Position numbers and translations under genes: made by a program
Notes under the pieces: model-generated
Told to the model about the DNA's origin: nothing
Seen by the model: only the letters and a program-made list of their open reading frames with translations
The model's database searches: none
Source of the DNA: Planctomycetota bacterium
Lineage (GTDB): Bacteria > Planctomycetota > Planctomycetia > Pirellulales > UBA1268
Direction: 5' to 3'
Assembly (NCBI GenBank): GCA_016872955.1
Contig: VGYP01000001.1
Span: 1-57,578 of the forward strand
DNA length: 57,578 bases
Shown: positions 855-16,704 of the stretch, piece after piece
Layout: every line of letters begins with the position of its first letter
Position numbering within the stretch: position 1 is the first letter of the stretch

Positions 855-900
855 TCCCCTTTCTCCCTGCCTTCCCTCCCGTCGCCGGATCAGTCAGCCG

Positions 901-2391
901 ATGTCGTCACCTGCGTCCGATTCGTCCTCGGCCGTGGCCTCGCCCGAGGGCGAGACCGGGCCCCGGTCTCTCGACCTCGGTATCGCGATCGAGGAGGTCT
1001 CGACCTGCCGACGGCGGGTGAAGGTCACCGTTCCCCGCGCTGACATCGACCGTTATCGCGACGACGCGATCGGCGACCTGATGCCGTCGGCGCTCCTGCC
1101 CGGCTTCCGGCCGGGCCGCGCCCCGCGCCGGCTCGTCAGCAGCCGCTTCAAGAGTGAGCTGGTCGAGCAGATCCGCTCGAAGCTGGTCACCGACGCGCTG
1201 GCGCAGGTGTCCGACAGCGGCAAGCTCTCGCCGATCAGTGAGCCCGATCTCGACATGGCGGCGGTGATCCTGCCCGACGATGGCCCGCTGACGTTCGAGT
1301 TCTCGATCGAAGTGCGGCCCGAGTTCGACCTGCCCGAGTGGAAGGGGCTCTCGATCTCCCGTCCGGCCCGTGAGATCGGCGATGCCGACGTCGAGGAGGC
1401 ACTTGACAACATCCTTCGCGAACGGGGTCGGTTCGTGCCTGCCGGCGGGTCGCCGGCGGTTGGCGACCTCGTCGTCGCCAACCTCCGCTTCAGCGACTCA
1501 GGCGAGCGGCTCTCCGAGGCCGAGGAGCTCGAGATCGTGGTCCGCCCGAAGCTCTCCTTCGCCGACGCCTCGCTCGAGGGCTTCGACACGCTCGTGGCCA
1601 AGGCCAAGCCGGGCGATACGTTCGAGGCGGCGGTGCGGGTCTCCGACGAGGCGGCCCTCGAGCCGCTCCGCGGTAAGGACGCGACGTTGTCGGTGGAGAT
1701 CGTCGAGGTCAAGACGCACGAACTGCCCACCCTCACCCCGGCGCTGCTTGAGGAGCTCGGTGGCTTCGAGAGCGAGCAGGCCCTCCGCGACGCGATTCGC
1801 CGACAGTTGGAAGGCCGCCTCGAATACCACCGCCGCAGGCAGGTCCGCCAGCAGGTGGCCGCCGCCCTGACCGCGTCAGCCTCCTGGGACCTGCCGCCCG
1901 ACCTGCTCCGTCGCCAGGCGCAGCGGGAACTCGAGCGGGCGATCCTCGAGCTCCGCCGCAGCGGCTTCGACGACGACTCCATCCGTCGCCACGTCAACGA
2001 GTTGCGACAGACGGTGCTGGCCAGCACGGCCCGGGCCCTCAAGGAGCACTTCATCCTCGAGCGGATCGCCGAGGAGGAGAAGATCGCCGACGATGGCGCC
2101 GACTACGACGCCGAGATCCGGGCGATCGCCGAGCAGTCGGGTGAGTCGCCGCGGCGGGTGCGGGCCAGCCTCGAGCGGCGCGGCCTGATGGACGTGCTCC
2201 GCAACCAGATCATCGAGCGGAAGACGGTCGACCTGATCACGTCGAAGGCCACCTTTAAGGATATCCCGTTCGAGTTCCCGAAGCCCGACACCGAGGCGGT
2301 CGATCACGCCGTCTGCGGAGCCGTGATCGGGGAGGATGAAATCCCCGTGGCCGAGCATGCCGAGCCGGCCGCCCGGCCCGGCCGCGGCTGA
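901..2391 (+). CDS. tig: trigger factor
   Basis: 496 aa. The N-terminal ribosome-binding region (LPGFRPGRAPRRLV) matches trigger factor. The classic tig-clpP gene order follows. Confidence 0.88.
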   Translation: MSSPASDSSSAVASPEGETGPRSLDLGIAIEEVSTCRRRVKVTVPRADIDRYRDDAIGDLMPSALLPGFRPGRAPRRLVSSRFKSELVEQIRSKLVTDALAQVSDSGKLSPISEPDLDMAAVILPDDGPLTFEFSIEVRPEFDLPEWKGLSISRPAREIGDADVEEALDNILRERGRFVPAGGSPAVGDLVVANLRFSDSGERLSEAEELEIVVRPKLSFADASLEGFDTLVAKAKPGDTFEAAVRVSDEAALEPLRGKDATLSVEIVEVKTHELPTLTPALLEELGGFESEQALRDAIRRQLEGRLEYHRRRQVRQQVAAALTASASWDLPPDLLRRQAQRELERAILELRRSGFDDDSIRRHVNELRQTVLASTARALKEHFILERIAEEEKIADDGADYDAEIRAIAEQSGESPRRVRASLERRGLMDVLRNQIIERKTVDLITSKATFKDIPFEFPKPDTEAVDHAVCGAVIGEDEIPVAEHAEPAARPGRG

Positions 2392-2439
2392 TCCGGCCCG
2401 GTTGGCTGTTTCCCACTCCCCCGCCCAACACCCCGCCTG

Positions 2440-3069
2440 ATGACGCCCATGACTGGTTTCCAGCCACCGCGAGCCTCGACCGCCTACCGCGATTACCAGC
2501 GGCAGCGGACGATGACGCTCGGCGACCTGCTCCTCGAGAATCGGATCATCCTCCTGCAGGGCGAGATTTACGACGGCAACGCCAACGAAGTCGTGATGAA
2601 ACTGCTCTACCTGCAGAGCGAGAATCGCCGCAAGGACATCCACTTCTACATCAACTCGCCGGGCGGCAGCGTCACCGCCACGATGGCGATCTACGACACG
2701 ATGCAGATCCTCTCCTGCCCGGTGGCGACCTACTGCGTCGGCCTGGCGGCCAGCGGCGGCGCGGTGCTCTTGGCCGGTGGGTCGCGGGGTAAGCGGTTCG
2801 CGTTGCCCCACGCCAAGGTGATGATTCATCAGCCCTACGGGCAGGTGGGCGGCCAGGTGAGCGACATCGAGATCCAGGCCGACGAGATTCTCAAGACCCG
2901 TGCCGTGCTCAACGAGATCCTCGCCACCCACACCAGCCAGCCGATCGAGCAAATCGCGCGGGACACCGACCGCGACCGCTACCTGACGGCCACCGAGGCC
3001 AAGGAATACGGCCTCGTCGACGAGGTGCTCACGAAGCCGCCGGTCGAAGCCGAGGCCGAGTCCGACTGA
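2440..3069 (+). CDS. clpP: ATP-dependent Clp protease proteolytic subunit (paralog 1)
   Basis: [31 protein letters not shown] (catalytic Ser), MIHQP (His) and DTDRDRYL (Asp). The exact start is uncertain among nearby Met codons. Confidence 0.92.
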
Positions 3070-3110
3070 CCCCCTCGGGCCGCGCGGCCCGCCTGAAACT
3101 TCTGCCAGCC

Positions 3111-3713
3111 ATGCCACTGATTCCCTTCGTGATCGAGAAGAGCGGCCGCGAAGAGCGGGCGATGGACATCTACTCCCGCCTGCTCAAGGACCGGATCATC
3201 TTCCTGGGCACGCAGGTCAACGACGACGTGGCCAACGCGATCGTGGCGCAACTGCTGTTTCTGCAGTCCGAAGACCCCAAGTCGGACATCCACCTGTACA
3301 TCAACTCCCCCGGCGGCAGCGTCACGGCCGGCCTGGCGATCTACGACACGATGCAGTTCGTGACCTGTGACGTGGCCACCTACTGCATCGGCCAGGCGGC
3401 GAGCATGGGCGCGGTGCTCCTCACGGCGGGCACCAAGGGCAAACGGCGGGCCCTACCCAACGCGCGGATCATGATCCACCAGCCGCTGGCCGGCATGGAG
3501 GGCACGGCGGAGGAGATCATGATCCACGCCAAGGAGTTCAAGAACGTCAAGCGCAAGCTCAACAACATTCTCCTCAAGCACACGGGCCACCCGCTGGTCA
3601 AGATCGAGGAGGACACGGATCGTGACCGGTTCATGTCGGCGCAGGAGGCGCTCGACTACCGGCTCATCGACGAGGTGATCGAGCACATGCCGACGGGCAG
3701 GGGGGCTGGCTAG
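3111..3713 (+). CDS. clpP: ATP-dependent Clp protease proteolytic subunit (paralog 2)
   Basis: [49 protein letters not shown] and DTDRDRFM. This is a canonical ClpP. Confidence 0.95.
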
Positions 3714-3791
3714 GAATCGGTGCGGCCGTCCGGCCGTGAACGACAGATATCACCGGCCCCGCGGGGCCGATGGCACGCAAGGAGGCGCGTC

Positions 3792-4781
3792 ATGAATCCG
3801 CAGCGTTCAGCAGCACAGGCGACCGGTGGTCGCCGCCTCGTGGTTCTGCCCAGCATCCTGGCGGCGGCCTTGGCCGCGGGCTGCAAGAGCGACCTGAGCC
3901 ATCAGCTCCTGGAGCGGGAGTTGCGGTATCAAGAGGATCAGATCTACCAGCTGCAGGACGAGCTGGCGGAGAAGTGCAGCCGGCTGGAGCACGTCGCCAC
4001 CGAGAACGCCAGCCTCCGGCGGCAGTTGGGCGTCTCTGACGCCGACCAGCCGGCTCCAGGCCGAGGGCGAAGGACCCGCGCCTCAAGCGCCTTACCGGCC
4101 GCCACCGTGCCACCGGCGATCCAGGTGCCCGACGCCGCCCCGCTGCCCGCGCCCCGCCGCGTTGGGCCGCCGGTGGATCTCGCTCCACCCACGCTCGAGG
4201 GCGTGCCGCCGGTGCCGGCAGCGTCCGGCGGGGCGACACCGACGAGTGACACCGGCGACGGCCTCTCGTTGCCCCCGGCCACGGCCTCGTTCGACCCCGC
4301 GGCCAGGCCGATCGCCGCGGCGGGGTCTGCCTCGCGGGATGATACGGAGACGGGGCTGGCGACACCCTCGTTTGTGACGCTCTCCCATGCGGAGCCGGCG
4401 GGGCCAGCGCGGGCCGTGCGGCTGTCGATCAACCCGGCGACGAGCGCCCCGATCGACCCGGACGGCGATGGGCTGGCCGAGGGTATCGCGCTGGCCGTCG
4501 AGCCGCGGGACGAGGCCGAGCGGCTAATCTGGGCCGGGGGCGATGTGACCGTCACGGCCTTCGACGCGGCCGCGGCCGCAGGGTCTCCACCGCTGGCTAG
4601 TTGGACCGTCGCCGAGGCCGACGCCCGAGCGCGGTTCCGGCCCACGGGCCGCCGCCGCGGACTGTTCCTGGAACTGCCCTGGCAGGCCGTCCGACCCACG
4701 GGCGACCATGTCCGCGTGGCGGTGCACGTCACGACGCCCGAGGGCCCGATCGAGACCGAGGCCCTGGTACCCGCCCGCTGA
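3792..4781 (+). CDS. hypothetical lipoprotein with N-terminal coiled-coil segment
   Basis: An internal ATG gives MNPQRS...LVVLPSILAAALAAGCKSD, a signal peptide plus lipobox L-A-A-G-C. A heptad-like stretch LLERELRYQEDQIYQLQDELAEK and a Pro/Ala-rich linker follow. I did not recognise a family. Confidence 0.55.
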   Translation: MNPQRSAAQATGGRRLVVLPSILAAALAAGCKSDLSHQLLERELRYQEDQIYQLQDELAEKCSRLEHVATENASLRRQLGVSDADQPAPGRGRRTRASSALPAATVPPAIQVPDAAPLPAPRRVGPPVDLAPPTLEGVPPVPAASGGATPTSDTGDGLSLPPATASFDPAARPIAAAGSASRDDTETGLATPSFVTLSHAEPAGPARAVRLSINPATSAPIDPDGDGLAEGIALAVEPRDEAERLIWAGGDVTVTAFDAAAAAGSPPLASWTVAEADARARFRPTGRRRGLFLELPWQAVRPTGDHVRVAVHVTTPEGPIETEALVPAR

Positions 4782-4801
4782 GGGCCGACAGCCGGGGCTG
4801 G

Positions 4802-5818
4802 TTAGAGGCCCTGGTCCTCGAGGAAGTTGAGCAGGTCGGTGACGCGGCAGGAATAGCCCCACTCGTTGTCGTACCAACTCACCACCTTCACGAAGTTGCC
4901 GAGGCCCACCGTGTCGACGGCCGAGAAGATCGAACTGTGCGGATCCTTCTTCAGGTCGGTCGAGACGAGCTCCTGGTCGCTGTAGCGGAGGATGCCCTTG
5001 AGCGGCCCCTCGGCCGCCTTCTTCATGGCGGCGTTGATCTCGGCGGGCGGGGCATCCTTGCCGAGGATCGCCGTGAAGTCGACCACGCTGACCGTCGACA
5101 CCGGCACCCGGAACGCCATGCCTGTGAACTTCCCCTGGAGCTCGGGAATCACCAGCCCCACAGCCCTCGCCGCGCCGGTGCTCGAGGGGACGATGTTGAG
5201 GGCTGCCGCCCGGGCGTCGCGGAGGTCCTTGGCGGCCGTGTCGACGGTCTTTTGGGAGTTGGTGTAGGCGTGCACCGTGGTGAGCAGGCCCTTCTCGATC
5301 CCGAAGGTCTCGTGGAGCACCTTGGCCACCGGCGCCAGGCCGTTGGTGGTGCAGGAGGCGTTGGAGATCACGTGATGCTTCTTCGGGTCGTACATCCGGT
5401 TGTTGACGCCCAGCACGATCGTCAGGTCCTCGTTCTTGGCCGGCGCCGAAATCACTACCTTCCTGACGCTATCCCGCTTGTGGGCCACGGCCTTGGTGGC
5501 GTCGGTGAAGAAGCCGGTGCTCTCCACCACGATCTGTACGTCCTCGCTGCCCCAGGGAATGGTCCCCGGATCCTTCTCGGCGAAGACCTTGATCTTGCGA
5601 CCGTCGACGACGATGTCGTTACCCTCGTGGCCGACCGTGGCGGCGAAGGGGCCGTAGTTAGAATCGTAGGCCAACAGGTGGGCGTTGGTCTTGGCGTCGG
5701 TGAGGTCGTTGATCGCCACCACCTGCACGTCACCGGCGAGGCCGTGCTTCTCGTAGATGGCGCGGAAGGTGAGGCGGCCGATGCGGCCGAAACCGTTGAT
5801 GCCGACGCGGATGGGCAC
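4802..5818 (-). CDS. gap: type I glyceraldehyde-3-phosphate dehydrogenase
   Basis: The N-terminus is MPIRVGINGFGRIGR and the active site is SNASCTTN. Full length is 338 aa. Confidence 0.96.
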   Translation of the reverse strand: MPIRVGINGFGRIGRLTFRAIYEKHGLAGDVQVVAINDLTDAKTNAHLLAYDSNYGPFAATVGHEGNDIVVDGRKIKVFAEKDPGTIPWGSEDVQIVVESTGFFTDATKAVAHKRDSVRKVVISAPAKNEDLTIVLGVNNRMYDPKKHHVISNASCTTNGLAPVAKVLHETFGIEKGLLTTVHAYTNSQKTVDTAAKDLRDARAAALNIVPSSTGAARAVGLVIPELQGKFTGMAFRVPVSTVSVVDFTAILGKDAPPAEINAAMKKAAEGPLKGILRYSDQELVSTDLKKDPHSSIFSAVDTVGLGNFVKVVSWYDNEWGYSCRVTDLLNFLEDQGL

Positions 5819-5989
5819 GGCGAGTCTCCTGGGAGCGAAGGGGCGGGGCAGGCCGCATGGGCCCGCGACGTCGCGGGCAGCCGGTGCTGGGAAGCGGCGG
5901 GAATATACACCGGCCGGCCGGCGGTCCTCAATCGACGCGACGCATCGCCGCTGGTCGTTCGCGTCGGCCGCACGGTAGACTCTTCCTCC

Positions 5990-6676
5990 ATGCCCGACCC
6001 GGTGATCGTCCTGGAAAACGTCCGCAAGGGTTTCGCCATGCCGGGGGGCGAGCGGGTCGACGTGCTCGACGTGCCCAGCTTCCGCCTAGCCGCCGGCGAA
6101 CAGGTTGCCCTGGAGGGCTCGAGCGGCTCCGGCAAGTCGACGCTGCTGCACGTGATCGCGGGGATCATGCGGCCCGACTCGGGGCGGGTGGTCGTGGCCG
6201 GCACTGACATCACCACGCTGTCCGAAGGCCGCCGCGACCGGCTGCGGGCCGACACGCTCGGGCTGGTGTTCCAGCAGTTCAACCTCCTGCCCGGATTCAC
6301 GGCGCTGGAAAACGTGCTGGTCGCTATGTCGTTCGCGTCGGGCCAGCCGGATCGGGCCCGGGCGGCGGCGCTGCTCGAGGCCGTGGGGCTGGCCCACCGA
6401 CTGCATCACAAGCCCGTCGAACTCTCGACGGGCCAGCAGCAGCGGGTGGCGGTGGCCCGGGCCTTGGCCAACCGTCCCGCCGTGGTGCTCGCCGACGAGC
6501 CCACCGCCAGCATCGACGCGGCCCATCAGCAGCAGGTCGTCGACCTGCTCCGGAACACCTGCACCGGGCACGGCGTAGCGCTGCTGGTGGTCACGCACGA
6601 CGCCGACGTGGCCCGACAGTTTCCCCGCCGGCTCGCGCTCGGAGAGTTCAACCGGGCGACGCGGCAGCAGGCCTAA
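5990..6676 (+). CDS. ABC transporter ATP-binding protein (MacB/LolD-like)
   Basis: An internal ATG in the 4601..6676 ORF gives MPDPVIVLENVRKGF. It has Walker A GSSGSGKST, signature LSTGQQQRV and Walker B VVLADEPT. The upstream part of that ORF is antisense to gap. Confidence 0.9.
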   Translation: MPDPVIVLENVRKGFAMPGGERVDVLDVPSFRLAAGEQVALEGSSGSGKSTLLHVIAGIMRPDSGRVVVAGTDITTLSEGRRDRLRADTLGLVFQQFNLLPGFTALENVLVAMSFASGQPDRARAAALLEAVGLAHRLHHKPVELSTGQQQRVAVARALANRPAVVLADEPTASIDAAHQQQVVDLLRNTCTGHGVALLVVTHDADVARQFPRRLALGEFNRATRQQA

Positions 6677-6690
6677 GGGAGCCTCTCGAC

Positions 6691-8061
6691 ATGTCACTCC
6701 TGGGCATCGCCTGGCGCAGCATCCGGCAGCGGCTGTTCACAAGCGGGCTGACGGCCTTGTCGCTGGCGCTGGGCGTAGCGCTGGTCGTGGCCACGCTCGT
6801 GATCGGGGGCGTCGTCCGCGATGCCTTCGCCTCGGGGCAGGGGCTCGGCTACAACCTGATCGTGGGCGCGAAGGGCAGCCCGCTGCAGCTGGTCCTGAAC
6901 AGCGTCTACCTCGTCAGCAAACCGATCGAGAACATTCCCTGGTCCTTCTACCAGGCGTTCCTGCCCGCCGCGGCCCGGCCCGAGGGCACCGCGGGCCGCT
7001 ACGCCGGCAGCATCGCCCAGGCGGTGCCGATCTGCATGGGGGACTATTTCCGGAGCTTCCGCGTCGTGGGCACCAGCGCCGCCTATTTCGACGGCCTCAC
7101 GCTCGGCGACGGTCGGCCCTTCGCCTTCGCGACGGGACGAAACTTCCGTGACGACGAGTTCTTCGGCGGCGTGTTGGGCGCGACCGTGGCCGCCAGGCTC
7201 GGCCTCGCCGTGGGCGACCCCTTCTCCCCCACGCACGGCGCCGACGACGGGCTCGTGCACGACCCCTTCGTGGTCACCGGCATCCTAGCCCGCACCGACA
7301 CGCCGGTCGATCGCGGCGTGTACGTGAACATGGAGGGGTTCTATCTCCAGGAGGGACACGCCAAGCCGCTGCCCGCGGGGGGGGCGGGGGGCGACGACCG
7401 GCCGTCCCCCGATCCCCCGGCCGATCCCACGGCCGACCACGACCATGCCCATGACGCCGCGGCGGCCGGTGTGACGCAGCCCGCACCGCTCCCCTTCGCC
7501 CAGCGGGAGGTGACGGCGATCCTCGTGCAGACCGCCGCCCCCGGCGGCATGCCGCCGGAGCTGCTGGCGATGGGCCTGAAGACCACGATTAACGAGGGCC
7601 CCGACGGCCAGGCAGCCGAGCCCGTCCGCGAGATCCGCACACTTTTGGATCTCTTCGTCCGACCACTCGAGCTGCTCTTGCTGCTGGTCACCACGCTCGT
7701 CGTGATCGTCTCGGCGATCGGCATCCTCGTCAGCATGGTCGGCTCGGCCCTGGAGCGCAGCCGCGACGTGGCGGTGATGCGAGCGCTCGGGGCCCGCCGT
7801 AGCCACGTGCTCACGGCCGTGCTCCTGGAGGCGATCCTCCTGGCCGTCGGCGGTGGCTTGGCCGGCTGGCTGCTGGGCCACGGCATCGTGGCGGCGATCG
7901 GGCCGCTGATCACGACCAACGCCGGCGTCTCCGCCGGCTTCCTGTCGTCGGCGCCGCTCGGCGAGGCGCTGCTCGTGCCGCTGCTGGTCGTGCTGGCCAT
8001 CCTGGCGGCCCTGCTGCCGGCCCTGGCCGCCTACCGCACCGACGTGGCGAAGTGGCTCTGA
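6691..8061 (+). CDS. ABC transporter permease, FtsX/MacB-type, with a His/Asp-rich low-complexity insert
   Basis: 456 aa. It has an N-terminal TM helix, a large extracytoplasmic domain and a C-terminal FtsX-like 3-TM block (VMRALGARRSHVL...). The insert reads PADPTADHDHAHDAAAAG at about 7360-7495. Confidence 0.85.
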   Translation: MSLLGIAWRSIRQRLFTSGLTALSLALGVALVVATLVIGGVVRDAFASGQGLGYNLIVGAKGSPLQLVLNSVYLVSKPIENIPWSFYQAFLPAAARPEGTAGRYAGSIAQAVPICMGDYFRSFRVVGTSAAYFDGLTLGDGRPFAFATGRNFRDDEFFGGVLGATVAARLGLAVGDPFSPTHGADDGLVHDPFVVTGILARTDTPVDRGVYVNMEGFYLQEGHAKPLPAGGAGGDDRPSPDPPADPTADHDHAHDAAAAGVTQPAPLPFAQREVTAILVQTAAPGGMPPELLAMGLKTTINEGPDGQAAEPVREIRTLLDLFVRPLELLLLLVTTLVVIVSAIGILVSMVGSALERSRDVAVMRALGARRSHVLTAVLLEAILLAVGGGLAGWLLGHGIVAAIGPLITTNAGVSAGFLSSAPLGEALLVPLLVVLAILAALLPALAAYRTDVAKWL

Positions 8062-8129
8062 GCGGACGCCCGTAGCAGGTAGGACGTCGTCGTCGGCGCG
8101 GCGCGGATCGGCCCCACGTTCTGGGAGGC

Positions 8130-8761
8130 ATGACCGTGCGGTTGCGAACGCAACCCTGGCACGAGCCGACCGGCGGCCGCGGACCGGGGCGATTCTTCGT
8201 GGTCTTCCTGGCCACGATGTTCGCGCTGGAGTTCGGGATCATGGCGGTGCTGCCCCAGCGCTTGCCCGCGGACACATCGCCGCTGGCCGCGGCGGTGGTC
8301 GGCGCCGCGGTGCTGACGGCCGTGCTCGCGCCGCTGATCTGGTTCGGCTTCGTGCGGCCCGTCCAGCGCTTGCACGAGAGCCGCGGCGTGCTCCTGGGGA
8401 AGTTCCTGTCCGCCCAGGAGCACGAACGCCGGATCACCGCCAACCTCCATGACGGGCTCGGGCAAAACCTCACGGCGATGCTCGTCAGGCTCAGCGTCAT
8501 CGAGGGCTCGAGCGTCGCTGCCGGGGTGCGGGAGAATGCCGCGGCCCTCCGGGAGATCGCCGCCACCTCGCGCGCGGAGATCCGATCCAGGACATCGTCC
8601 GCTCGACGCGGCCGCCCGCACCCGACGACCTCAGGCCGGCCGCGGCCATCGAGCAGCAGTTGGCCGACCTGGCCGCCGCGACCGGCATCGCCACGGCCTT
8701 CTCCTAGCCCGACAGCGAGGGTCGCCGCTTCGCGGCGGAGATCAAGACCACCGTCTATCGC
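8130..8761 (+). pseudogene. decayed sensor histidine kinase (HisKA_3 / NarX-LiaS type)
   Basis: Two TM helices and the H-box EHERRITANLHDGLGQNL are intact. The frame is lost near 8575-8585; the continuation IQDIVRSTRPPAPDDLRPAAAIEQQLADL lies in another frame. There is an in-frame TAG at 8705-8707. The ATPase domain is missing: ...AEIKTTVYRV abuts the receiver start at 8762. Confidence 0.7.
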
Positions 8762-9188
8762 GTGGTGATCGCCGACGACCACGCCGTGATGTGGTCCGGA
8801 CTGCGGCTGTTGCCCGAAAGCCAGGCCGACATGCGGGCCGTTGACGACTGCGGGACCCACCAGGAGGTGCTCGCCACCCGCGAGCGGAATCGGGTGGGCG
8901 TCGACGTCGTGTCACTCGACCTCTCGATGCCCGGTGGATCGGCGGGCGCTCTGATCGAGGACGTCGTTCGCGGCCAACCGGGCGCGGGCCTGGTGGTGCT
9001 CACGACGCACGACGACGCCGGGCATGCCCGGCGTCGTCAAGTCGGCCACCGACCGGCTGTTCTTGAGCGTCAAGACCATCGAGTCATATCGATCGCGGCT
9101 GATGGCCAAACGCGGCCTCACCAATCGGGCGAAACTGACGCAGGTGGCCCTCGATGCGGGCCTGATGGACGGCACCGCGGGCGGCTGA
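8762..9188 (+). pseudogene. decayed NarL/LuxR-family response regulator
   Basis: The receiver start is VVIADDHAVMWSGLRLLPESQADM...DVVSLDLSMPGGSA...LVVLTTHDD. Part of the receiver and the linker are then missing, and the frame changes. The LuxR HTH tail LSVKTIESYRSRLMAKRGLTNRAKLTQVALDAGLM is read in a different frame and ends at TGA 9186-9188. Confidence 0.7.
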
Positions 9189-9190
9189 CG

Positions 9191-9734
9191 GAGCTCCGCC
9201 TGGGCGTTCTGGACGTATTCGCTCAGCCGCCGCAGCGTAAAGAGTTTCTCGCCGGGACAGGCGGTGTCACCCCGGAAGGCGTGGACCTGCGTCAAGACCC
9301 CCACGACGCCGAGGCTCTTGCGGGCCTGCGGGCTCACCTTTACCACGTCCCTGGTCGGCGGTGCCGGCGGCGGCATGATCCCGGCACCGCTTGCGGCCTC
9401 GGTCGCCGCAGGCACGACGTGCGGCAGCAGATCGTCGAGCGTGGGCAGCCGACCGCCGGGCGGCCTCACTGGCAGCCGGCGTTGGCCCGCGTCGGTCGTG
9501 TCGACCACGGCCGACATGGGCGGCAGGGCAATCGTCGTCCAGCCGTTCGCCGTGGGCATGGTCGTCGTCGTGGTGCGGGTGTCCGTGCCAGACCCAGTGG
9601 CGATGGAGCCGCAGCGCGTTCGGGGAGCCGGCCGAGGCGGCGGTCTCATGGCAGTGCGACACGGCTGAGACCGAGGGCAGCCCGTGGGCAACGACGATGG
9701 GCACGGCCAGCCAGCGGCCGAGCGACGGGATCAT
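9191..9734 (-). pseudogene. secreted His-rich protein, coding signal split over two frames (frameshifted gene or two overlapping ORFs)
   Basis: Frame A from ATG 9734 reads MIPSLGRWLAVPIVVAHGLPSVSAVSHCHETAASAGSPNALRLHRHWVWHGHPHHDDDHAHGE, with high GC3. Around 9540-9560, GC3-rich coding continues in a second frame: (M)PTANGWTTIALPPMSAVVDTTDAG...DVVKVSPQARKSLGVVGVLTQVHAFRGDTACPGEKLFTLRRLSEYVQNAQAELRQ. That second frame has no stop until 8912, inside the RR remnant, so the 3' end is undefined. Confidence 0.4.
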
Positions 9735-9833
9735 CCGAGCGATGAGCAGGCGCCTACCCGGCCGCCGGCCACGCCGCCACACCACTCCACGGCAACGCGA
9801 CGGGCGGCGACCGGCGTTGCTACAATCCGAGCT

Positions 9834-11330
9834 ATGAACCACCAGTCTGTCACCCTCCCGCCTGGGCCCGCGGCCCTGCTGCCCGTGCTTGTGGCCCTCG
9901 CCGCCGCGCTGCTGGTGACCCCCGCCAGCGCCTGCCCGTTCTGCTCCGCCGTGTCGCCGACCTTCGCCCAGGAGATCGCCCAGAGCGGGGCGGCCGTGAT
10001 CGCCACGCTCGTCGAGCCACCGCCGGCCTCAGCGCTCCAGCCCAATGCCGAGGGGCCGCTGCCCAAGGGGAAGTTCGAGGTGGTCGAGGTGCTCAAGGGG
10101 GCCGACGTCGTCGCGGCGGCCGGCCTTACCGGCGCCGGCGCCACCCCAATCGAGACGATCATGCTCGAGGCCCAGCCGGTGGGCACGACCTTCCTGTTGA
10201 TGGGCGTCGAACCGCCCCAGATCGTCTGGAGCAGCCCGATCCGCATCGGCGACCGCGCGATCGCCTACCTCAAGAAGCTCGCCGGCCTGCCGGAGAAGGG
10301 GGCCGACCGGCTGGCCTTCTTCCTGGGTCACCTCGAGGACGAGGACGACACGCTCACCCGCGACGCCTACGACGAGTTCGCCGTCGCCCCCTACGAGGAT
10401 GTCAAGAATCTCGCCGACCGGATGGACGCGACGCGGCTGCTCGGCTGGATCGAGAACCCCAAGATCCCGGCCAATCGCCGCCGTCTCTATGCCACCATGC
10501 TTGGCGTCTGCGGCACGCCGGCCGACGCCGAGCGGATCGCCGCGATCCTTGAGGGCAAGGGACTGGCCGCCGAGCAGCCCGAGATTCGCAACGGCCTCGA
10601 CGCCCTGATCGCCTGCTACGTCGCGCTGCGGGGGGAGTCGGCGCTCGACCTGGTCGACACGCTCTTCCTCGAGCGGGCCGGCGGCGGCAAGGAGGTGCCC
10701 TTCACCGAGACCTATGCGGCGGTGATGGCCCTGCGGTTTTTGGGGGAGGAGTCGCAGCTCGTGCCGCGATCGCGGGTGCTCGCCTCGCTGCGGCTGTTGC
10801 TCGACGAGCCGAAGCTCGCCGACCTGGTGATCGCCGACCTGTCCCGCTGGCAGGATTGGTCGCTCATCGAGCGGCTGACGACGATCTTCAAGGAGGCCAA
10901 GTCGGACAACATCTTCGTCCGCGAGCCAATCGTGAACTATCTCCGCGCCTGCCCGTTGCCCGAGGCCGCCGCGGCCGTCCGGGACCTTGAGCAAATCGAC
11001 CCCGAGGCGGTGCGACGGGCCGCCACGCTGGCGGGGCTCGCCGGCATCGCGGCCGCCACCCCAGCCGGCGACGACGCCGCGGCCAACCCCGCGGGCGACG
11101 CCGACCTCGCCGGCCAGATCGGCGCCGTGATCGCCGACGAGGATCCGGCCGACGGTAACCCCGGCCGCGATCCATCGTCCCCACTCCCGCCAAGCCGCAC
11201 TCCGTCGACCGCACCCGCCGGCGACGGCTGGAAGCGGGTCCTCTGGGGCGTGGTCGTCCTGGTAGTGGCGGTCGTCACCCGGTCGTTGCTCAAGCCCGGA
11301 TCGTCAAGGGGCCGGCAGGTATCGCTGTGA
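9834..11330 (+). CDS. uncharacterised envelope protein: signal peptide ending in C-P-F-C, helical-repeat body, C-terminal TM anchor (paralog 1)
   Basis: MNHQSVTLPPGPAALLPVLVALAAALLVTPASA|CPFCSAV. The body is alpha-helical and HEAT-like. The C-terminal TM helix is WKRVLWGVVVLVVAVV. It is clearly paralogous to 15568..16704. TACAAT at 9821-9826 sits immediately upstream of the ATG. Confidence 0.7.
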   Translation: MNHQSVTLPPGPAALLPVLVALAAALLVTPASACPFCSAVSPTFAQEIAQSGAAVIATLVEPPPASALQPNAEGPLPKGKFEVVEVLKGADVVAAAGLTGAGATPIETIMLEAQPVGTTFLLMGVEPPQIVWSSPIRIGDRAIAYLKKLAGLPEKGADRLAFFLGHLEDEDDTLTRDAYDEFAVAPYEDVKNLADRMDATRLLGWIENPKIPANRRRLYATMLGVCGTPADAERIAAILEGKGLAAEQPEIRNGLDALIACYVALRGESALDLVDTLFLERAGGGKEVPFTETYAAVMALRFLGEESQLVPRSRVLASLRLLLDEPKLADLVIADLSRWQDWSLIERLTTIFKEAKSDNIFVREPIVNYLRACPLPEAAAAVRDLEQIDPEAVRRAATLAGLAGIAAATPAGDDAAANPAGDADLAGQIGAVIADEDPADGNPGRDPSSPLPPSRTPSTAPAGDGWKRVLWGVVVLVVAVVTRSLLKPGSSRGRQVSL

Positions 11331-12046
11331 ACTCCCCCGGACCATGCCGAGTGCCCACGAGCACGGGACTTTTCGACGCACCCGCCCTCTCCGCCCCGCG
11401 CGTCGACGCGGCAGTTGGCGACGATCGCTACCGCGCTGTCTCCGGAGCGGCGATCGTGGCGCTGGCCCTCGCCCTGCTGACGCCGCTGGTGTTCGTCGGC
11501 TGGACCTTCGCGGCGGTGCCGGTGGTCGGGGTCGTGATCGCCCTGGTGGCACTGGGCGACATCGCCCGCCGACCCGAGGCCGTCACCGGGCGGGGCCTCG
11601 CGATCACCGCCCTGGGGGTCTCGGCCACCAGCCTCGTGGCGGGCCTGGCCTACCTTGCGACGGTCTACGCGGCGGAACTGCCCGAGGGCTTCACGCGGCT
11701 CACCTATGCGGTCCTGCAGCCGCTGCCGGGCGACCCGCCCGCGGCAGTGCCCGACTCGGCCCACGCCGTCGCCGGCCAGAACGTGCTGCTCAAGGGCTAC
11801 ATGTACCCGGGCACGCGGCAGCGGGGGATCACCGAGTTTCTGCTCTGCCGCGACCAAGGCGACTGCTGCTTCGGCGGGCAGCCCAAGATCACCGACCGGG
11901 TGCTCGTACGGCTCGCCGATCCGACCGGCATGGTGTTCACCCAGGGGCTCGTCAAGATCGCCGGCCGGTTCCGCGTCGAGCCGGCCGGCACGCCTGAACT
12001 CGGCGGCGGCGTGCTCTACCACATCGATGACGCCGTCACCCGTTAG
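11327..12046 (+). CDS. membrane protein with DUF4190-like N-terminus and DUF3299-like C-terminal domain
   Basis: The GTG start overlaps the upstream stop (GTGA at 11327-11330). The TM pair is AIVALALALLTPLVFVGW / VVGVVIALVALGDIARRP...GRGLAITALG. The C-terminus reads VLLKGYMYPGTRQRGITEFLLCRDQGDCCFGGQPKITDRVLVRL...GRFRVEP. Confidence 0.7.
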   Translation: MNSPGPCRVPTSTGLFDAPALSAPRVDAAVGDDRYRAVSGAAIVALALALLTPLVFVGWTFAAVPVVGVVIALVALGDIARRPEAVTGRGLAITALGVSATSLVAGLAYLATVYAAELPEGFTRLTYAVLQPLPGDPPAAVPDSAHAVAGQNVLLKGYMYPGTRQRGITEFLLCRDQGDCCFGGQPKITDRVLVRLADPTGMVFTQGLVKIAGRFRVEPAGTPELGGGVLYHIDDAVTR

Positions 12047-12073
12047 CGTTAGCCGCGGCGTCGAGAAGAGCCG

Positions 12074-12586
12074 ATGGACCACCCCGCCGCGACAATCCTC
12101 TTGATGGCCACACTCGCCGCCGTCGGCTGCGGCGGATCCCGCGAGCCGGCCGCGGTGCCGGCGCCCACCACGCGGCCGACGATTTCGGACGCGGGGACGG
12201 CCCCGCCGCCGGCCGCGCCGCGGGAGATCACCTTCGACGACATCAAGCTCGAGATGGAGAAGGGGGCCCCCTTCACCCGCGAGCTGCTGCCCAAGCGGGT
12301 GACCGCCCTGCCGGGCTCGGCCATCCGGATCCGCGGCTACATCCTGCCGAGCTTCCAGCAGACGGGCCTGACACAGTTCGTGCTCGTCCGCGACAACCAG
12401 GAATGCTGCTTCGGCCCGGGCGCGGCGCTGCACGACTGCATCGTGGTGCGGATGCGGCCCGGGAAGACGGCTGATTTTTCGATCCGGCCGGTGGCCGTCG
12501 CCGGCACCTTCCGGATCGACGAGTTGCGGGCCCCCGACGGATCGCACCTGGCGATCTACGCCCTCGACGGGGACGACGTGAAGTAG
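12074..12586 (+). CDS. DUF3299-like lipoprotein
   Basis: The lipobox is LLMATLAAVGCGG. The domain IRIRGYILPSFQQTGLTQFVLVRDNQECCFGPGAALHDCIVVRM...VAGTFRIDE parallels the C-terminus of the previous gene, including the shared CCFG motif. Confidence 0.7.
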   Translation: MDHPAATILLMATLAAVGCGGSREPAAVPAPTTRPTISDAGTAPPPAAPREITFDDIKLEMEKGAPFTRELLPKRVTALPGSAIRIRGYILPSFQQTGLTQFVLVRDNQECCFGPGAALHDCIVVRMRPGKTADFSIRPVAVAGTFRIDELRAPDGSHLAIYALDGDDVK

Positions 12587-12589
12587 CCC

Positions 12590-12808
12590 TGCCGCGGCAA
12601 CCCCATCATCCGATCGCTGATGAGGCTCTTCTCGGTGACGTCCAGCCTGCCGAACGTGCGGTTCATCACGCAACTGCTCCTGGGGGGCATCCTGGCCGCC
12701 TACCTGGGAACGATGACGTTTCTGGTGTTCGACATGAACCAGCCGTTCCGCGGGCAGGTGAGCATCTCGTCCGCCCCGTTCGACGCCCTTTTCCAATGGA
12801 TGGCCTAG
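12590..12808 (+). pseudogene. 3' remnant of a DUF4239-like membrane protein gene, interrupted by the IS element
   Basis: Only the last ~65 codons are present (...LLLGGILAAYLGTMTFLVFDMNQPFRGQVSISSAPFDALFQWMA). They start right after the stop of the previous gene. The TAG at 12806-12808 is supplied by the IS end. The reading frame resumes after the IS at 14033 (MAARAIVPEPRR, stop 14069-14071). Confidence 0.55.
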
Positions 12809-12826
12809 GACTACGACGTTAGCTGC
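12805..12826. repeat. left terminal inverted repeat of the IS remnant
   Basis: CTAGGACTACGACGTTAGCTGC pairs with the reverse complement of 14005-14026 (shared CTAG..CT.C..CGTTAGCT.C). Confidence 0.55.
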
Positions 12827-12852
12827 TCTTGAGCCCGATCAGTTTTGAAGTC

Positions 12853-13894
12853 ATGCTTCCTGGCATGACTGCACGGAAGCTTCACAACCTGAAGACCGAG
12901 ATGCAGGCGTTCGTCGAGGATGTGGCCGCCGGCATCGGACGGAGTGAGCGGAAACACTGGTGCTCGACGGTGATCGCAAGAGCATCGAGCCGATGGCCGG
13001 TCGGCTCACCGCGATCGATCCGCCGGAGAAGGACTACGTCCAGGCGCTCCAGCAGTTCATCAACCAGAGCAACTGGGAGGACTCGCTGGTTCAGGAAAAC
13101 ATGCGGCAGCGTATCGGCCGCATCTGCCGGAGGCGTGGACGACGGATGCCAAACGGATGAAAAAGGCCGGTGTTCCGGCCGAGATTGGCTACCGTCCGAA
13201 GTGGCAGATTGCCCTGGAGATGCTCCGACAAGCGCGAGTGGAAGGATTCTCAGGGCCAGTGTTGGCTGACAGTGCCTACGGCACCGTGACGCAGTTCCGG
13301 CGGGAACTTGACGCGCTTGGCTTGCCGTGGTGCCTGGGCATCGACAGCACGCTGCGGGTGATTGCGGCGAACGCCGATCTGGGGCCAGTACCGGCGAAGG
13401 GGCCGATGGGCAGAACGCCGACACGGCCGCACAAACTCGCCGACGGCACGTTGAAGACCAGGCGTGTTGCGGACTGGGCATGGAGGCGGCGTTCCGCCTT
13501 CCGCAAGGTTACCTGGCGACAGGGCAGCCGAGGTCCGATGGCGAGCCGCTTCGCCGTCTGGCGGGTCCGGTATGCCCATCGCGCGAGGATGGGCATTGAG
13601 CCGCTTGAGGCGTGCTGGCTGATCGCTGAATGGCCGACCGACGCCGAGAAGCCGACGAAGTTCTTCTTCTCGAATCTGCCTGCCACGGCATCCCAGAAGG
13701 AGCTCGTTTGGCTTGCGAAGCGTCGCTGGTGGATCGAGCACTCCTACAAGGAACTCAAGGACGAACTTGGACTCGACCACTTCGAGGGACGTTCCTGGCG
13801 AGGCTGGCATCATCACGTCACGCTCACGATGCTGGCGTACCTCTTCCTCGTCGAACTGCGAAAGAAGCTCGGGAACAAGGGGATCCTGGCCTGA
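12853..13894 (+). pseudogene. IS701-family DDE transposase, frameshifted and internally deleted
   Basis: Three frames must be joined. The first is MTARKLHNLKTEMQAFVEDVAAGIGRSERKHW. The second is LDGDRKSIEPMAGRLTAIDPPEKDYVQALQQFINQSNWED. The third is HLPEAWTTDAKRMKKAGVPAEIGYRPKWQIALEML...ADSAYG...RWWIEHSYKELKDELGLDHFEGRSWRGWHHHVTLTMLAYLFL. The block that normally carries the first catalytic Asp, between the Wd motif and LP..W, is missing. Confidence 0.8.
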
Positions 13895-14004
13895 GCTTGC
13901 CCACTATGCGCCGGCTCCTTCAATCGCTTCTGCTGTGCGTTTCACATCACTGCCCCATCTGCAATCGACCGATCAACGACGAACTCGTGCGGGTCGATTC
14001 CAGT

Positions 14005-14026
14005 GGAGCTAACGGAGGAGGACTAG
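14005..14026. repeat. right terminal inverted repeat of the IS remnant
   Basis: GGAGCTAACGGAGGAGGACTAG. See the left inverted repeat. Confidence 0.55.
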
Positions 14027-14071
14027 GAATGAATGGCCGCCCGCGCGATCGTTCCCGAGCCGAGACGGTGA

Positions 14072-14760
14072 CGCCGGAGCCTGGGGCTCGCCGTCGGCGT
14101 GCTCGGCCGGCCGGTGGAGGTCCGCGGTCCCAACACCAAGTCGTGGTGGCTCGACCTCTTTCCGCGGCGGGCGGAGCGGCTCTGCCAGGAGGGCGTCGCC
14201 GCACGCTTCGGCTGCTGGACGAGCACCAGCCGCAAGGCCGTGATCCCGGTGCTCGAGGAGTTCGACCGGCTGCTCTTCTAGCCCATGCAATCCGAGGGCA
14301 ACGAGTCGTCGCCACGCGTCGTTAACGGCGGATCGGTGCCCAACCAGAAAATTCTGCCGGCCATCGACTGGCTGCTCTCCCCCGGCGGGCGAGGCCTATC
14401 TGCCCCTCGGCCACAAGCAGTTCCGCAGCGCAATCGAGATGATCCAGGCAGCGCGTGACGAGCGATCAAATGGAGGCGGCCTACGGCCTGGTGCACCTTT
14501 GGAAGCGGGCCGTCGAAAAGGCCGGCTCGTTCAAGACGGCGGCGGTGCGGCAGGCGCTCCGCGAGGGCCTCGAGGTGGACGCGCCCGGCGGGCCGCTGCG
14601 GATCGACCCCGGCACGCAGCACGCGTGGAAGCGGTTCCGGCTAGGCCGGATCCACGCCGATCGGCAGTTCGACATCGTCCACGAGTCGGCCGAGCCGACC
14701 CGCCCGATCCCTCCCCCGAGGTCGCCTTTCCCGGCTGCAGTGCGACTGGACGGCGCGAGG
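14072..14760 (+). pseudogene. urtA: urea/amide ABC transporter substrate-binding protein (UrtA/AmiC-like) pseudogene
   Basis: Fragments lie in UrtA order: VLGRPVEVRGPN...VAARFGCWTSTSRKAVIPVLEEFDRLLF. Next comes TAG (14279-14281) where Tyr is expected, then PMQSEGNESSPRVV..VPNQKILPAIDWLLSPGGRG. A frame change and deletion follow, then YLPLGHKQFRSAIEMIQAA. After another frame change and deletion comes QMEAAYGLVHLWKRAVEKAGS...LEVDAPGGPLRIDPGTQHAWKRFRLGRIHADRQFDIVHES. The N-terminus and signal peptide are absent. Confidence 0.7.
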
Positions 14761-14789
14761 CCTCACCCGCGGCCCGGAGGTCCCGATCG

Positions 14790-15461
14790 ATGGCAACCTT
14801 TGAGAGCGAGGAATCCCAGTCGATGCGCTGGGTCCGCATCGACCTTGACGCCGACGACTGCCACACCGAGCGGAACGCGCTCAACCACCTGAAGAAGAAC
14901 GTCACAATGCACGTGCCGCTCCCCTCGCTTCAAGCCTGCTGGGTCTCGCTGTTCTCCGACGAGTCGATCATCCGGCCCCGCTACGAGGGCACCGGCAGGG
15001 TCTACCTCGACTCGTCCTTCGGCGGCTACCCTATCTTCACGATCACCCACCCTGACCGCTGGATCCTCGACACACACTGCTTCTGGGCGAGTGACGGCAA
15101 GGTCACCCTCCACATCCACCGCGAGCCGGTGCTCACGGCGTTGTTCGCTCGCCAGGGACTGCTCTGGTACAAGACGGCGCTCTCGGGTGACGGCCAGGTA
15201 GTGCTGAAGGTGGACGGCCCTGTCGAGGAAGTGACGCTCGACAATGACCGCCTCGTCCGCGACTGCCCCTACGTGGTGGCCCACACCGAAGGAATCACGC
15301 TGCGGAGGCTGCGGCCGGCGCGGTCGCTCTGGAGCACCTGGCTGGCGGGCCAGCAGCGGACCTATTCCTACGAGGGCACCGGTCGGCTGCTCCTGTGTAC
15401 CGTGCCCTACTGGCGTTGCCCGATAGAACTGGAAAACATCGGCTCGCTGGCCGGCATCTGA
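14790..15461 (+). CDS. AIM24 family protein (DUF124-like)
   Basis: An internal ATG gives MATFESEESQSMRWVRIDL. The pattern GTGRVYLDSSFGG...WILDTHCFWASDGKVTL...LSGDGQVVLKVDGPVEEVTLDNDRLVRDCPYVVAHTEGITL...YEGTGRLLL matches the repeated G.G beta-sandwich layout of AIM24 proteins. Confidence 0.6.
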   Translation: MATFESEESQSMRWVRIDLDADDCHTERNALNHLKKNVTMHVPLPSLQACWVSLFSDESIIRPRYEGTGRVYLDSSFGGYPIFTITHPDRWILDTHCFWASDGKVTLHIHREPVLTALFARQGLLWYKTALSGDGQVVLKVDGPVEEVTLDNDRLVRDCPYVVAHTEGITLRRLRPARSLWSTWLAGQQRTYSYEGTGRLLLCTVPYWRCPIELENIGSLAGI

Positions 15462-15567: not shown

Positions 15568-16704
15568 ATGAAATACCGCTGGCCGATCGTCATCGCTTTT
15601 TCAACACTGGCGGGGGGCGTGTCGGCCTGTCCGTTTTGCAACGTCGTGGGCCGCCCGCTCGCCGCCCGTCGCGATGCGGCGGCGGTGGTCGCCGCGGGCG
15701 AGGCGGCCGGCTCCGTGCGGCAGGACCCGGCCGGGCCGCGACAGCCGTTCACCGTCCGCAGCCTACTCCGCGGGGACCGCGTCGCGGTGGGGGACGAGGT
15801 CGACGGCCGCGTGGCCGGGCCGGTCGCGGGCACGGCGGTACTCTTCGGCGACGACCGCGGCGACTGGGAGGCGCTAGCGGCCGACGAGGCGGTGCTGGGA
15901 TACGTCGCTGCGGCCCCGGTCGCCTCGGCCGATGCGGCGGATCGGCTCCGCTGGTTCGCCGGCCGGCTCGAAGATCCCAACGCGACGATCGCCGCGGACG
16001 CATTTAGCGAGTTCGGCGTGGCCCCGTTCGCCGCGGTCGTGGCGGCCTCGGCCGCTCTCGATCCTGCCCGCCTCCGCGGTTGGCTCGACGAGCCGGGGAT
16101 CGATCCGCGGCGGCGGGGCTTCTACGGTCTGGCGGTCGGCATCGTCGCCCGCCGCGCGGCGGACCTCGGCGACGAGGCGGAGGCCCGCCGGTGCGTTGCC
16201 GCGCTCGAACGGCCGCTCGTCGCGCCGGGCAGCGATTTGCGGGCCGGCTTCGACGGCCTGCTCGGCGGCCTGCTGGTCGCCCGCGGTGAGGCGGCCCTCG
16301 ACTGGCTCGTGGCCCGCGGACTCGTCGCCGCCGACACGCGGGCCGGCGACGCACGGCACATGCTGGCGGCGCTGCGATTCGCCTGGGAAGACCTCGCCGA
16401 TCACCTGCCCCGCCAGCGGGTCGCGGCGATCGCGGCACGGCTACTGGCCAATCCCGCCGTGGCGGCCGACGTGGCGGTGGATCTGGCCCGCTGGCGGCAC
16501 TGGGCGAGCGTGGAGGACGTCGCGGCGCTCTGGGACGCCGCCGGCCGCGACGATCCGCTCGTGCGCCGCGCCGTGGCCGGCTATCTGCGGGCCTGCCCGC
16601 TCGCTTCGGCGCGGCGGCACGCCGCGCGGATCGCCGCCGCGTCGCCCGGCGCCTGGCAGGCCGCCGTGGCGGCCGCCGCCTGGCCGCCGCAGGGATTGGA
16701 TTGA
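15568..16704 (+). CDS. uncharacterised envelope protein with signal peptide ending in C-P-F-C (paralog 2, orphan copy)
   Basis: MKYRWPIVIAFSTLAGGVSA|CPFCNVV. Several blocks are shared with 9834..11330. ADRLRWFAGRLEDPNATIAADAFSEFGVAPF matches ADRLAFFLGHLEDEDDTLTRDAYDEFAVAPY. RLRGWLDEPGIDPRRRGFY matches RLLGWIENPKIPANRRRLY. GYLRACPL matches NYLRACPL. It lacks the C-terminal TM tail of paralog 1. Confidence 0.7.
   Translation: MKYRWPIVIAFSTLAGGVSACPFCNVVGRPLAARRDAAAVVAAGEAAGSVRQDPAGPRQPFTVRSLLRGDRVAVGDEVDGRVAGPVAGTAVLFGDDRGDWEALAADEAVLGYVAAAPVASADAADRLRWFAGRLEDPNATIAADAFSEFGVAPFAAVVAASAALDPARLRGWLDEPGIDPRRRGFYGLAVGIVARRAADLGDEAEARRCVAALERPLVAPGSDLRAGFDGLLGGLLVARGEAALDWLVARGLVAADTRAGDARHMLAALRFAWEDLADHLPRQRVAAIAARLLANPAVAADVAVDLARWRHWASVEDVAALWDAAGRDDPLVRRAVAGYLRACPLASARRHAARIAAASPGAWQAAVAAAAWPPQGLD

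Follow-up and report, generated by a model that had tools for sequence, protein, structure and literature searches.

The locus described here lies within a stretch of 57,578 nucleotides (nt) from the genome of a member of the Planctomycetota (contig VGYP01000001.1; Pirellulales, UBA1268), hereafter the window, whose G+C content is ~70% and whose coding frames were chosen by third-position G+C. This window holds a conserved six-gene planctomycete envelope module, carried on the forward strand. It begins with genes for an ABC ATPase of 228 residues (5990..6676; PF00005, a PA4064 homolog) and a type VII (MacB/FtsX) permease of 456 residues (6691..8061; FtsX and MacB_PCD, a PA4065 homolog), continues with a 498-residue protein that we name after its CPFC motif (9834..11330; signal peptide, CPFC, and family alignment), a 239-residue membrane protein combining DUF4190 and DUF3299 (11327..12046; Pfam and profile-profile comparison), and a 170-residue DUF3299 lipoprotein (12074..12586; Pfam DUF3299 and lipobox Cys19), and ends with a second CPFC-family paralog of 378 residues (15568..16704; CPFC family profile, E=2.7e-51). 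In outline, the module is a split type VII (MacB-like) ABC engine of the PA4064/PA4065-ZrgBC subfamily joined by two paralogous periplasmic pairs. A preliminary description of this DNA had confined the module to 5990-12586; that core stands, but the last CPFC gene had been missed and has to be added. Comparisons drew on 166 loci, made up of a close set of 86 and a distant set of 80 metagenome loci with 37-47% identity, as well as on the PA4063-PA4066 operon and its Phaeobacter equivalent, which were taken from plasmid records.

The earlier assignment of the first two genes to an ABC ATPase and an FtsX/MacB permease is confirmed by matches to PF00005, FtsX, and MacB_PCD. The ATPase matches PF00005 in Pfam with E=2.7e-33, carries the signature motif LSTGQQQR, and is 42% identical to PA4064 (E=8e-56). 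The permease matches FtsX (PF02687) with E=3.8e-14 and MacB_PCD (PF12704) with E=2.5e-12, and displays the layout of a MacB-type or type VII transporter, with an FtsX C-terminal transmembrane bundle and a MacB periplasmic core between the first and second transmembrane helices. Over its full length it is 31-32% identical to PA4065 and to the DUF3299-linked permease of Phaeobacter (E=8e-43 and 1e-53, respectively), whereas MacB of the PDB (E=5.4e-10), LolC/E/F, and YtrF align with its C-terminal transmembrane part only. The module therefore shares with MacAB-TolC the FtsX/MacB_PCD permease fold, for which mechanotransmission is expected (PMC5985334), but differs in having its ATPase as a separate polypeptide and in the confinement of its similarity to MacB to the C-terminal transmembrane region. 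No gene for a MacA-type adaptor or a TolC-like protein is found in the conserved loci, and the adaptor fragment present in the window belongs to an inserted resistance-nodulation-division (RND) island discussed below.

Two features of the permease periplasmic domain stand out. Residues H182 and H190 (nt 7231-7263), embedded in the motif HG...H.D.PF, show no variation across the 43 permeases compared (Planctomycetota and Proteobacteria), PA4065 included. The string DHDHAHD, to which attention had been drawn before, is indeed present (aa 249-255, nt 7435-7455) within a variable periplasmic loop whose length ranges from 22 to 90 residues among orthologs; the exact string is not kept among relatives, though the loop is recurrently His-rich. 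At least 5 His per 20 residues occur in the loops of 18 of 53 distant orthologs, some with up to 22 His and with HD/HE repeats, and no His-rich segment of this sort was found in the other four module proteins of the distant loci.

The first of the two paralogous pairs consists of the DUF3299 proteins. The 239-residue membrane protein, the start of whose gene overlaps the CPFC stop by GTGA at 11327-11330, has a DUF4190-like transmembrane hairpin followed by a periplasmic DUF3299 domain. The DUF4190-like assignment of the preliminary description finds backing in a Pfam match of E=6.3e-6, which nevertheless lies below the Pfam cut-off, and the Pfam match to DUF3299 is likewise sub-threshold (0.093); in a profile-profile comparison with hhalign, however, the membrane-anchored type matches canonical DUF3299 with 97.3% probability (E=1.6e-11). 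The 170-residue lipoprotein scores 24.4 bits against a DUF3299 cut-off of 22 in Pfam and matches PDB 4hsp with E=3.5e-6, an entry identical to PA4066 over the portion of sequence compared. Both C-terminal domains are DUF3299 homologs, as had been proposed, and within the window they are paralogous to each other (31% identity, E=3e-16). They are predicted to be anchored differently, one copy sitting on a two-helix inner-membrane anchor and the other on a lipoprotein tether, with lipobox Cys19 followed by a Pro/Ala-rich linker. CCFG, correctly noticed in both proteins, is invariant among relatives; it forms part of an invariant RDxGDCCFGG in the membrane protein (CCFG at nt 11864-11875) and of an invariant RDNxECCFGPGA in the lipoprotein (CCFG at nt 12404-12415). 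The core GACIHxPPPP of canonical DUF3299 (PF11736) is not kept, and in its place stands an invariant [DE]CCFG(G/P); of the two Cys in CCFG, only the first has a counterpart in the canonical motif, where it aligns with the Cys of GACIH. Canonical DUF3299 genes were also seen in plasmid records that show no ABC transporter beside them (L169, L170, and L171), with neighbors coding for an amidohydrolase, for a metallo-beta-lactamase (MBL)-fold hydrolase together with a TPR protein, and for PhoD/metallophosphoesterase proteins, all of which are metal-dependent enzymes. The literature mentioning DUF3299 yielded nothing on planctomycetes.

The second pair belongs to a large uncharacterized family of ~2,000 clusters, whose architecture and invariant motifs can now be defined. 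The 498-residue member has no sequence match in Pfam, NCBIfam, or the PDB, and its distant relatives are annotated just as Pirellulales/Planctomycetota 'HEAT repeat' or hypothetical proteins. Searches returned at least 998 homologs, with 63-88% identity among the matches listed; at E<1e-30 the family comprises 584 clusters (50% identity), and the gene is present in at least 584 species genomes. The 80 CPFC-bearing genomes that were kept are all metagenome-assembled genomes (MAGs) of Planctomycetota save a few evidently mislabelled ones; several MAGs with a Pirellulales-type locus bear the names 'Candidatus Kuenenia' or 'Chitinophaga', an apparent case of taxonomic mislabelling or bin contamination. 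From the N- to the C-terminus the 498-residue protein is composed of a signal peptide, an NTR/TIMP-like oligonucleotide/oligosaccharide-binding (OB) domain, a HEAT/ARM-like domain, a Pro/Ala-rich linker, and a C-terminal transmembrane anchor. The signal-peptide CPFC protein noted earlier is thus real, as is its overlap with the next gene. Its AxA signal peptide is followed by CPFC at aa 34-37 (nt 9933-9944), the predicted mature N-terminus, and in an alignment of 38 members, extending down to 32% identity, the AxA signal peptide stops right before an invariant Cys-x-x-Cys (C34 and C37) in nearly all members. This placement suggests that Cys is the first residue of the mature protein. The exact sequence CPFC is found in 115 of 150 representatives, the two Cys being invariant and the residues between them variable; also invariant in the alignment are T43, W132, P135, D177, and the DLARWxDW of the helical domain, after which come a low-complexity Pro/Ala/Ser linker and a transmembrane helix with a basic tail. 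A lipoprotein reading of the Cys was ruled out by the AxA before it and by the charged residue often found at position -2. The second paralog is 32% identical to the first (E=1e-40) and has a signal peptide and CPFC of its own (nt 15628-15639); since it carries neither linker nor transmembrane anchor, it is predicted to be soluble in the periplasm, so that this pair, too, appears to combine one anchored member, on a long linker, with one that is free.

In the full-length AlphaFold2 model of the CPFC protein (mean predicted local distance difference test score [pLDDT] of 82.9), a helical repeat domain follows an N-domain rich in beta structure, and Foldseek matches the helical part to HEAT/ARM proteins and the N-domain to agrin NtA/N-TIMP. 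Modeled alone, the mature N-domain (pLDDT 82.7) has as its top Foldseek matches NtA (6e-5 to 2.5e-4, TM-score 0.52), TIMP-1 (8.5e-3), the NTR of meteorin, TIMP-2, and complement C3, a likeness at the level of the fold only, with identity of ~15%. In common with the NTR modules (N-TIMP, agrin NtA, netrin-like), the predicted domain is an OB barrel with N- and C-terminal flanking helices and has a Cys at its start; it differs in being bacterial and periplasmic, in its fusion to HEAT repeats and a tether, and in lacking detectable sequence similarity to NTR modules, with no Pfam TIMP/NTR match. The disulfides that lock NTR modules are likewise missing, there being no other conserved Cys in the domain. 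A thioredoxin-fold reading was rejected, as the modeled fold is OB and the Foldseek matches are to NTR proteins.

This outcome bears on the possibility that a thiol-disulfide relay, or a quality control system, operates in the periplasm, built from the CPFC and Cys-Cys DUF3299 proteins and driven by the ABC engine to which it would be coupled. CPFC fits the pattern CPxC, well known as the redox motif of glutaredoxin and DsbA; both Cys are invariant although the positions in between differ among members, and free thiols need explaining in a compartment as oxidizing as the periplasm. Yet the CPFC model is OB/NTR rather than thioredoxin-like, the sole glutaredoxin sequence match is insignificant (E=0.73), canonical DUF3299 bears a Cys-x-His and no Cys pair, and no DsbD/CcdA-like electron source is encoded nearby; a thiol-redox function is judged unlikely.

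The same models raise a second possibility, namely that the CPFC proteins are TIMP-like regulators whose N-terminal Cys would ligate or block the active-site metal of a metallo-hydrolase in the periplasm and which the ABC engine would switch, as FtsEX does with the activators of cell-wall hydrolases. TIMPs rely for their mechanism on an N-terminal Cys at the catalytic metal, and cleavage at AxA|C would likewise give Cys as the first residue of the CPFC proteins. The top matches of the N-domain model are NTR modules only (agrin NtA, TIMP-1, meteorin NTR, TIMP-2), HEAT repeats are suited to protein binding, and canonical DUF3299 genes adjoin those of metallo-hydrolases. With a TM-score of only about 0.5 and identity of ~15%, no Pfam TIMP/NTR match, a CPFC tail modeled as flexible, and no protease gene conserved in the neighborhood, we regard this proposal as very unlikely; the disulfides that fix the N-terminal ridge of TIMPs have no counterpart either, because the CPFC domain has no other conserved Cys. 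A literature search for bacterial TIMP-like proteins found nothing.

Conservation of gene order further ties the two pairs to the engine. On long contigs of relatives the order reads tig, clpP, clpP, x, gap (minus strand), ATPase, permease, CPFC, DUF4190-DUF3299, DUF3299 lipoprotein, ..., sucC, sucD, and the permease and CPFC genes are separated by a gap of 16-72 bp that contains neither a regulator nor a His-rich open reading frame (ORF). The permease is adjacent upstream of the CPFC gene in 50 of the 66 close loci with room for it and in 35 of 49 distant ones; the DUF4190-DUF3299 gene is adjacent to the CPFC gene in 75/77 close and 61/68 distant loci, and the lipoprotein gene is present in 59/59 and 46/56, respectively. 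Downstream, a CPFC paralog was recognized in 45 loci of the close set and in 20 of the distant set, with signal peptide and CPFC in 20/20 of the distant paralogs; it directly follows the lipoprotein gene in L004, and in the window it stands directly upstream of sucC/sucD. The CPFC family is therefore tightly linked to DUF3299 genes and usually to ABC genes. The preliminary description had staked its case on conserved linkage of this kind and on matches of both C-terminal domains to DUF3299; both were found, and on neither count does the case fail. The permease|CPFC junction is a hotspot for insertions, which include RND islands, a PSCyt-type gene pair, and a gene for a 733-residue protein, and a survey of the junction detected inversions in three loci. 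These insertions and inversions suggest that the module is read as two transcription units. Other cargo was also observed at the junction in L037, L058, and L059. In five distant loci (L098, L134, L137, L139, and L155) tandem CPFC-family genes are not followed by DUF3299 genes, so that the CPFC pair can occur without the DUF3299 pair.

Two differently anchored pairs beside an ABC engine also recall the LolCDE-LolA-LolB and LptB2FGC-LptA-LptDE systems, in which paralogous periplasmic partners, such as LolA/LolB and LptC/LptA, are unlike in anchoring. The module might by this analogy be a trans-envelope relay for a lipoprotein or a lipid, its anchored and mobile paralogs passing the cargo outward. 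The housekeeping context and very broad conservation would suit such a role, and LolD is the best curated match of the ATPase at 202.7 bits. That score, however, is far under the cut-off of 307.75, as is also the case for the LolC model; the permease is much nearer to PA4065 than to any of LolC/E/F, no sequence relation links the DUF3299 or CPFC proteins to LolA/B or to Lpt proteins, and invariant Cys/His motifs are unexpected in lipid carriers. A lipid or lipoprotein relay thus seems quite improbable.

The closest known parallel is the Zrg/PA4063-PA4066 system. Operons of this kind are Zur-regulated in Vibrio and Pseudomonas (PMC9817125), and the system has been tied to Zn/Co homeostasis (PMC9817125, PMC9820375, PMC11481552). 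ZrgA is required for growth under zinc limitation, while no role has been assigned to ZrgE (PMC9820375), and the function of the Pseudomonas system is disputed, with zinc uptake and pyochelin-cobalt export as the competing views (PMC9820375, PMC11481552). The parallel drawn in the preliminary description holds for three of the four parts: the planctomycete module shares a split ATPase and a four-transmembrane-helix permease with a large periplasmic domain, both full-length homologs, as well as the invariant His pair of the permease and a DUF3299 protein (PA4066/ZrgE) encoded beside it. It does not extend to the fourth part, as there is no homolog of PA4063, a DUF2796 protein. The planctomycete module also lacks ZrgD and has two CPFC-NTR-HEAT proteins in addition; its DUF3299 is duplicated, with Cys-Cys in place of Cys-x-His, any His-rich loop is on the permease itself, and the setting is a housekeeping neighborhood in which no Zur box was found. 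In other words, four Cys-motif proteins, tethered or soluble, have in the planctomycete version replaced the soluble protein that binds zinc. Ancient and very widespread, this version offers a natural variant of a zinc-homeostasis family whose mechanism is unsettled: import of ions is not expected of a MacB-type machine, and yet genetic evidence ties the system to zinc and cobalt.

Taken together, the homology to Zrg, the permease His pair, the recurrent His-rich loops, and the invariant thiol motifs make it probable, on indirect grounds, that the module has a role in metal handling. As a tentative and more specific reading, to which we give a little less than an even chance, it would handle a thiophilic or borderline metal ion in the periplasm by ATP-driven hand-off, with zinc as the best guess. 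The ion might be captured by the periplasmic domain of the permease, with its invariant His pair and also, in many lineages, with the His/Asp-rich loop, might be held as well at thiol sites, namely the Cys-x-x-Cys at the N-terminus of CPFC proteins and the Cys pair of the DUF3299 proteins, and would then be handed between membrane-anchored and mobile paralogs. ATP hydrolysis would power loading or release by way of mechanotransmission and not transport through the permease, and the direction could be either supply to envelope clients or uptake, on the one hand, or removal, on the other. The amidohydrolase, MBL-hydrolase, and PhoD/metallophosphoesterase genes that adjoin canonical DUF3299 genes are in keeping with a metal role.

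Several observations weigh against a metal hand-off. No homolog of the zinc-binding DUF2796 protein (ZrgA/PA4063) was found among the module proteins, and relatives have no extra gene at that place. Half of the permease orthologs have no His at all in the loop, neither a His nor a Met is invariant in the CPFC family besides its two Cys, and the CPFC tail is poorly modeled (pLDDT <50). Heavy-metal-efflux (HME) RND islands adjoin the module in just 7 of 166 loci and derive from two insertion events, so that their adjacency was given little weight as functional evidence. The module lies amid the housekeeping genes tig, clpP, gap, and sucCD, a setting unlike that of a starvation regulon. A Zur/Fur-type box, for which a search of the intergenic regions had been proposed, was not found there; AT-rich palindromes were sought in 5800-6000, 8050-8140, and 9700-9850, the host's own Zur motif not being at hand. 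K-mer footprinting of 51 related gap/ATPase intergenic regions returned a single conserved motif, the minus-strand, sigma-70-like promoter TTGAGG-18-TATATT (5902..5931) of the divergent gap gene (GAPDH; 4802-5818, minus strand), with hexamer regions common to 28-33 of the 51. This motif is the promoter of gap and not an operator of the module. Finally, zinc binding by PA4066 is not evident, and export of pyochelin-cobalt has been argued for the Pseudomonas pump (PMC11481552).

This last argument leads to a further alternative, according to which the module extrudes an organic molecule, such as a metallophore, a hydrophobic metabolite, or a peptide, in which case the DUF3299 and CPFC proteins would bind the substrate or act as adaptors. 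The MacB-type architecture and the full-length homology to PA4065 are what an exporter would lead one to expect, and PA4064/PA4065 have been argued to form a MacB-type exporter of pyochelin-cobalt, alongside a PA4066 devoid of evident Zn binding (PMC11481552). Against it stand the want of a membrane fusion protein (MFP) adaptor or TolC-like gene in the conserved module, the absence of biosynthetic genes nearby, and the recurring His-rich loops and invariant thiol motifs, which favor ions over organic cargo. We therefore judge the export of an organic molecule to be improbable.

Metal hand-off could also be cast in a more specific form, in our estimate rather unlikely, in which the NTR/TIMP fold would have its first bacterial representatives in the CPFC proteins; these, with the N-terminal Cys-x-x-Cys as their working part, would constitute, together with the Cys-Cys DUF3299 proteins and the type VII ABC engine, a housekeeping metal-ion relay across the periplasm. 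The N-terminus made by signal peptidase would provide a 1,2-aminothiol along with a second thiol, and the planctomycete periplasm to be crossed is unusually wide. If true, a relay of this design would supply a mechanistic logic for the MacB-like Zrg/PA4063-66 systems in zinc homeostasis. The question of the partner proteins is directly testable, because the planctomycetes have swapped in the Cys-motif proteins and, in many lineages, bear the His-rich loop on the permease.

Between the permease and the first CPFC gene the window contains a mixed-frame stretch of 1.77 kb (8062-9833), which is a decayed island. Its first part is a NarL-type two-component system on the plus strand (8130..9188; HisKA_3, partial REC, and half a GerE helix-turn-helix), described before as dead, and rightly so. 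The kinase remnant keeps only HisKA_3 and has lost HATPase_c, shows a frame change near 8590 as well as an in-frame stop, and is fused to a partial receiver covering REC profile positions 2-85; the last half of the GerE helix-turn-helix (positions 25-57) survives in a third frame, and neither the kinase nor the regulator is complete. The preliminary description had also listed a secreted His-rich ORF on the minus strand (9267-9734), whose frame is backed by third-position G+C only for about 9480-9734. Comparison with the closest relative, L005, whose CPFC protein is 88% identical to that of the window, discloses its origin. Divergent from the CPFC gene, L005 carries an intact gene for a 149-residue His-rich protein, then one for a 458-residue adaptor, and then the start of an RND pump gene, to which DNA the window aligns over 9191-9743 in four blocks with deletions between them. 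The small His-rich gene is a pseudogene (9417..9743, minus strand) in which the first ~74 codons are intact, HGHPHHDDDHAH included; a 113-nt deletion shifts the frame after HAHGER, a second deletion has removed the stop of this gene and the N-terminus of the adaptor with its transmembrane segment, and a third has taken 35 internal adaptor codons. Of the periplasmic adaptor (MFP) gene, ~80 codons remain in two blocks (9191..9428, minus strand), nothing being left beyond adaptor residue ~146. Hence only the first ~74 codons of the supposed gene match the intact one, and the remainder, out of frame, is joined to adaptor fragments by the two further deletions.

The two-component system, together with the adaptor fragments and the His-rich pseudogene, represents what is left of an inserted CusA/CzcA-type heavy-metal RND efflux island. 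The debris at 9191-9743 derives from an operon of the CusCFBA/CzcCBA kind, but the window has lost the pump gene and retains only fragments of those for the adaptor and the small protein; no complete HME-RND operon remains there, and the island is an insertion and not a part of the module. An intact island of the window's kind occurs in L007, L011, and L017, and a different one in L024, L030, and L051, the two having entered the same junction in two sublineages; pumps of both (L017 and L030) pass the CusA/CzcA model TIGR00914, scoring 711 and 1101 bits where 701 is required. The island of L005, L007, L011, and L017, located upstream of the CPFC gene, encodes small His-rich proteins and has the pump motif AMG..VDDAIV.VEN, and that of L024, L030, and L051 (about 880-8000) has an IhpA-like outer-membrane factor and the pump motif DFG...VEN.

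That all parts first listed, His-rich ORF and two-component system included, make up one functional metal module is consequently extremely improbable. Physical proximity and the His-rich motifs of the ORF speak for it; the ORF, however, has a shifted frame and runs into pieces of the adaptor gene, the catalytic and DNA-binding parts are missing from the two-component system, and ORF and two-component system alike are absent from most relatives, including the 50 of 66 close loci in which the permease abuts the CPFC gene. The earlier reading was therefore right about the Zrg-like core and the CPFC linkage and wrong about the His-rich ORF and the two-component system, a caution that neighboring His-rich ORFs and regulators can be the remains of an unrelated insertion.

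A further lineage-specific disruption (12620..14325, plus strand) separates the fifth and sixth genes of the module in the window, where a Bestrophin-like stump, a split DDE transposase gene, and an AIM24 gene lie between the lipoprotein gene and the CPFC paralog. The stump, of 62 codons (12620-12808, plus strand), is apparently the C-terminal end of a Bestrophin-like (PF14023) gene whose first ~200 codons appear to have been deleted; a gene of this type comes after the lipoprotein gene in L003, L005, and L006. The AIM24-family ORF (14439-15461, plus strand; PF01987, E=9e-22) occupies a position at which relatives have Bestrophin-like, Peripla_BP_6, or AIM24 genes. Between stump and ORF, 12829-14325 is a decayed insertion sequence with a DDE_5/DDE_Tnp_1 transposase in two frames (12829-13269 and 13157-13894) and a 22-nt imperfect inverted repeat at 12979-13000 and 14357-14378.

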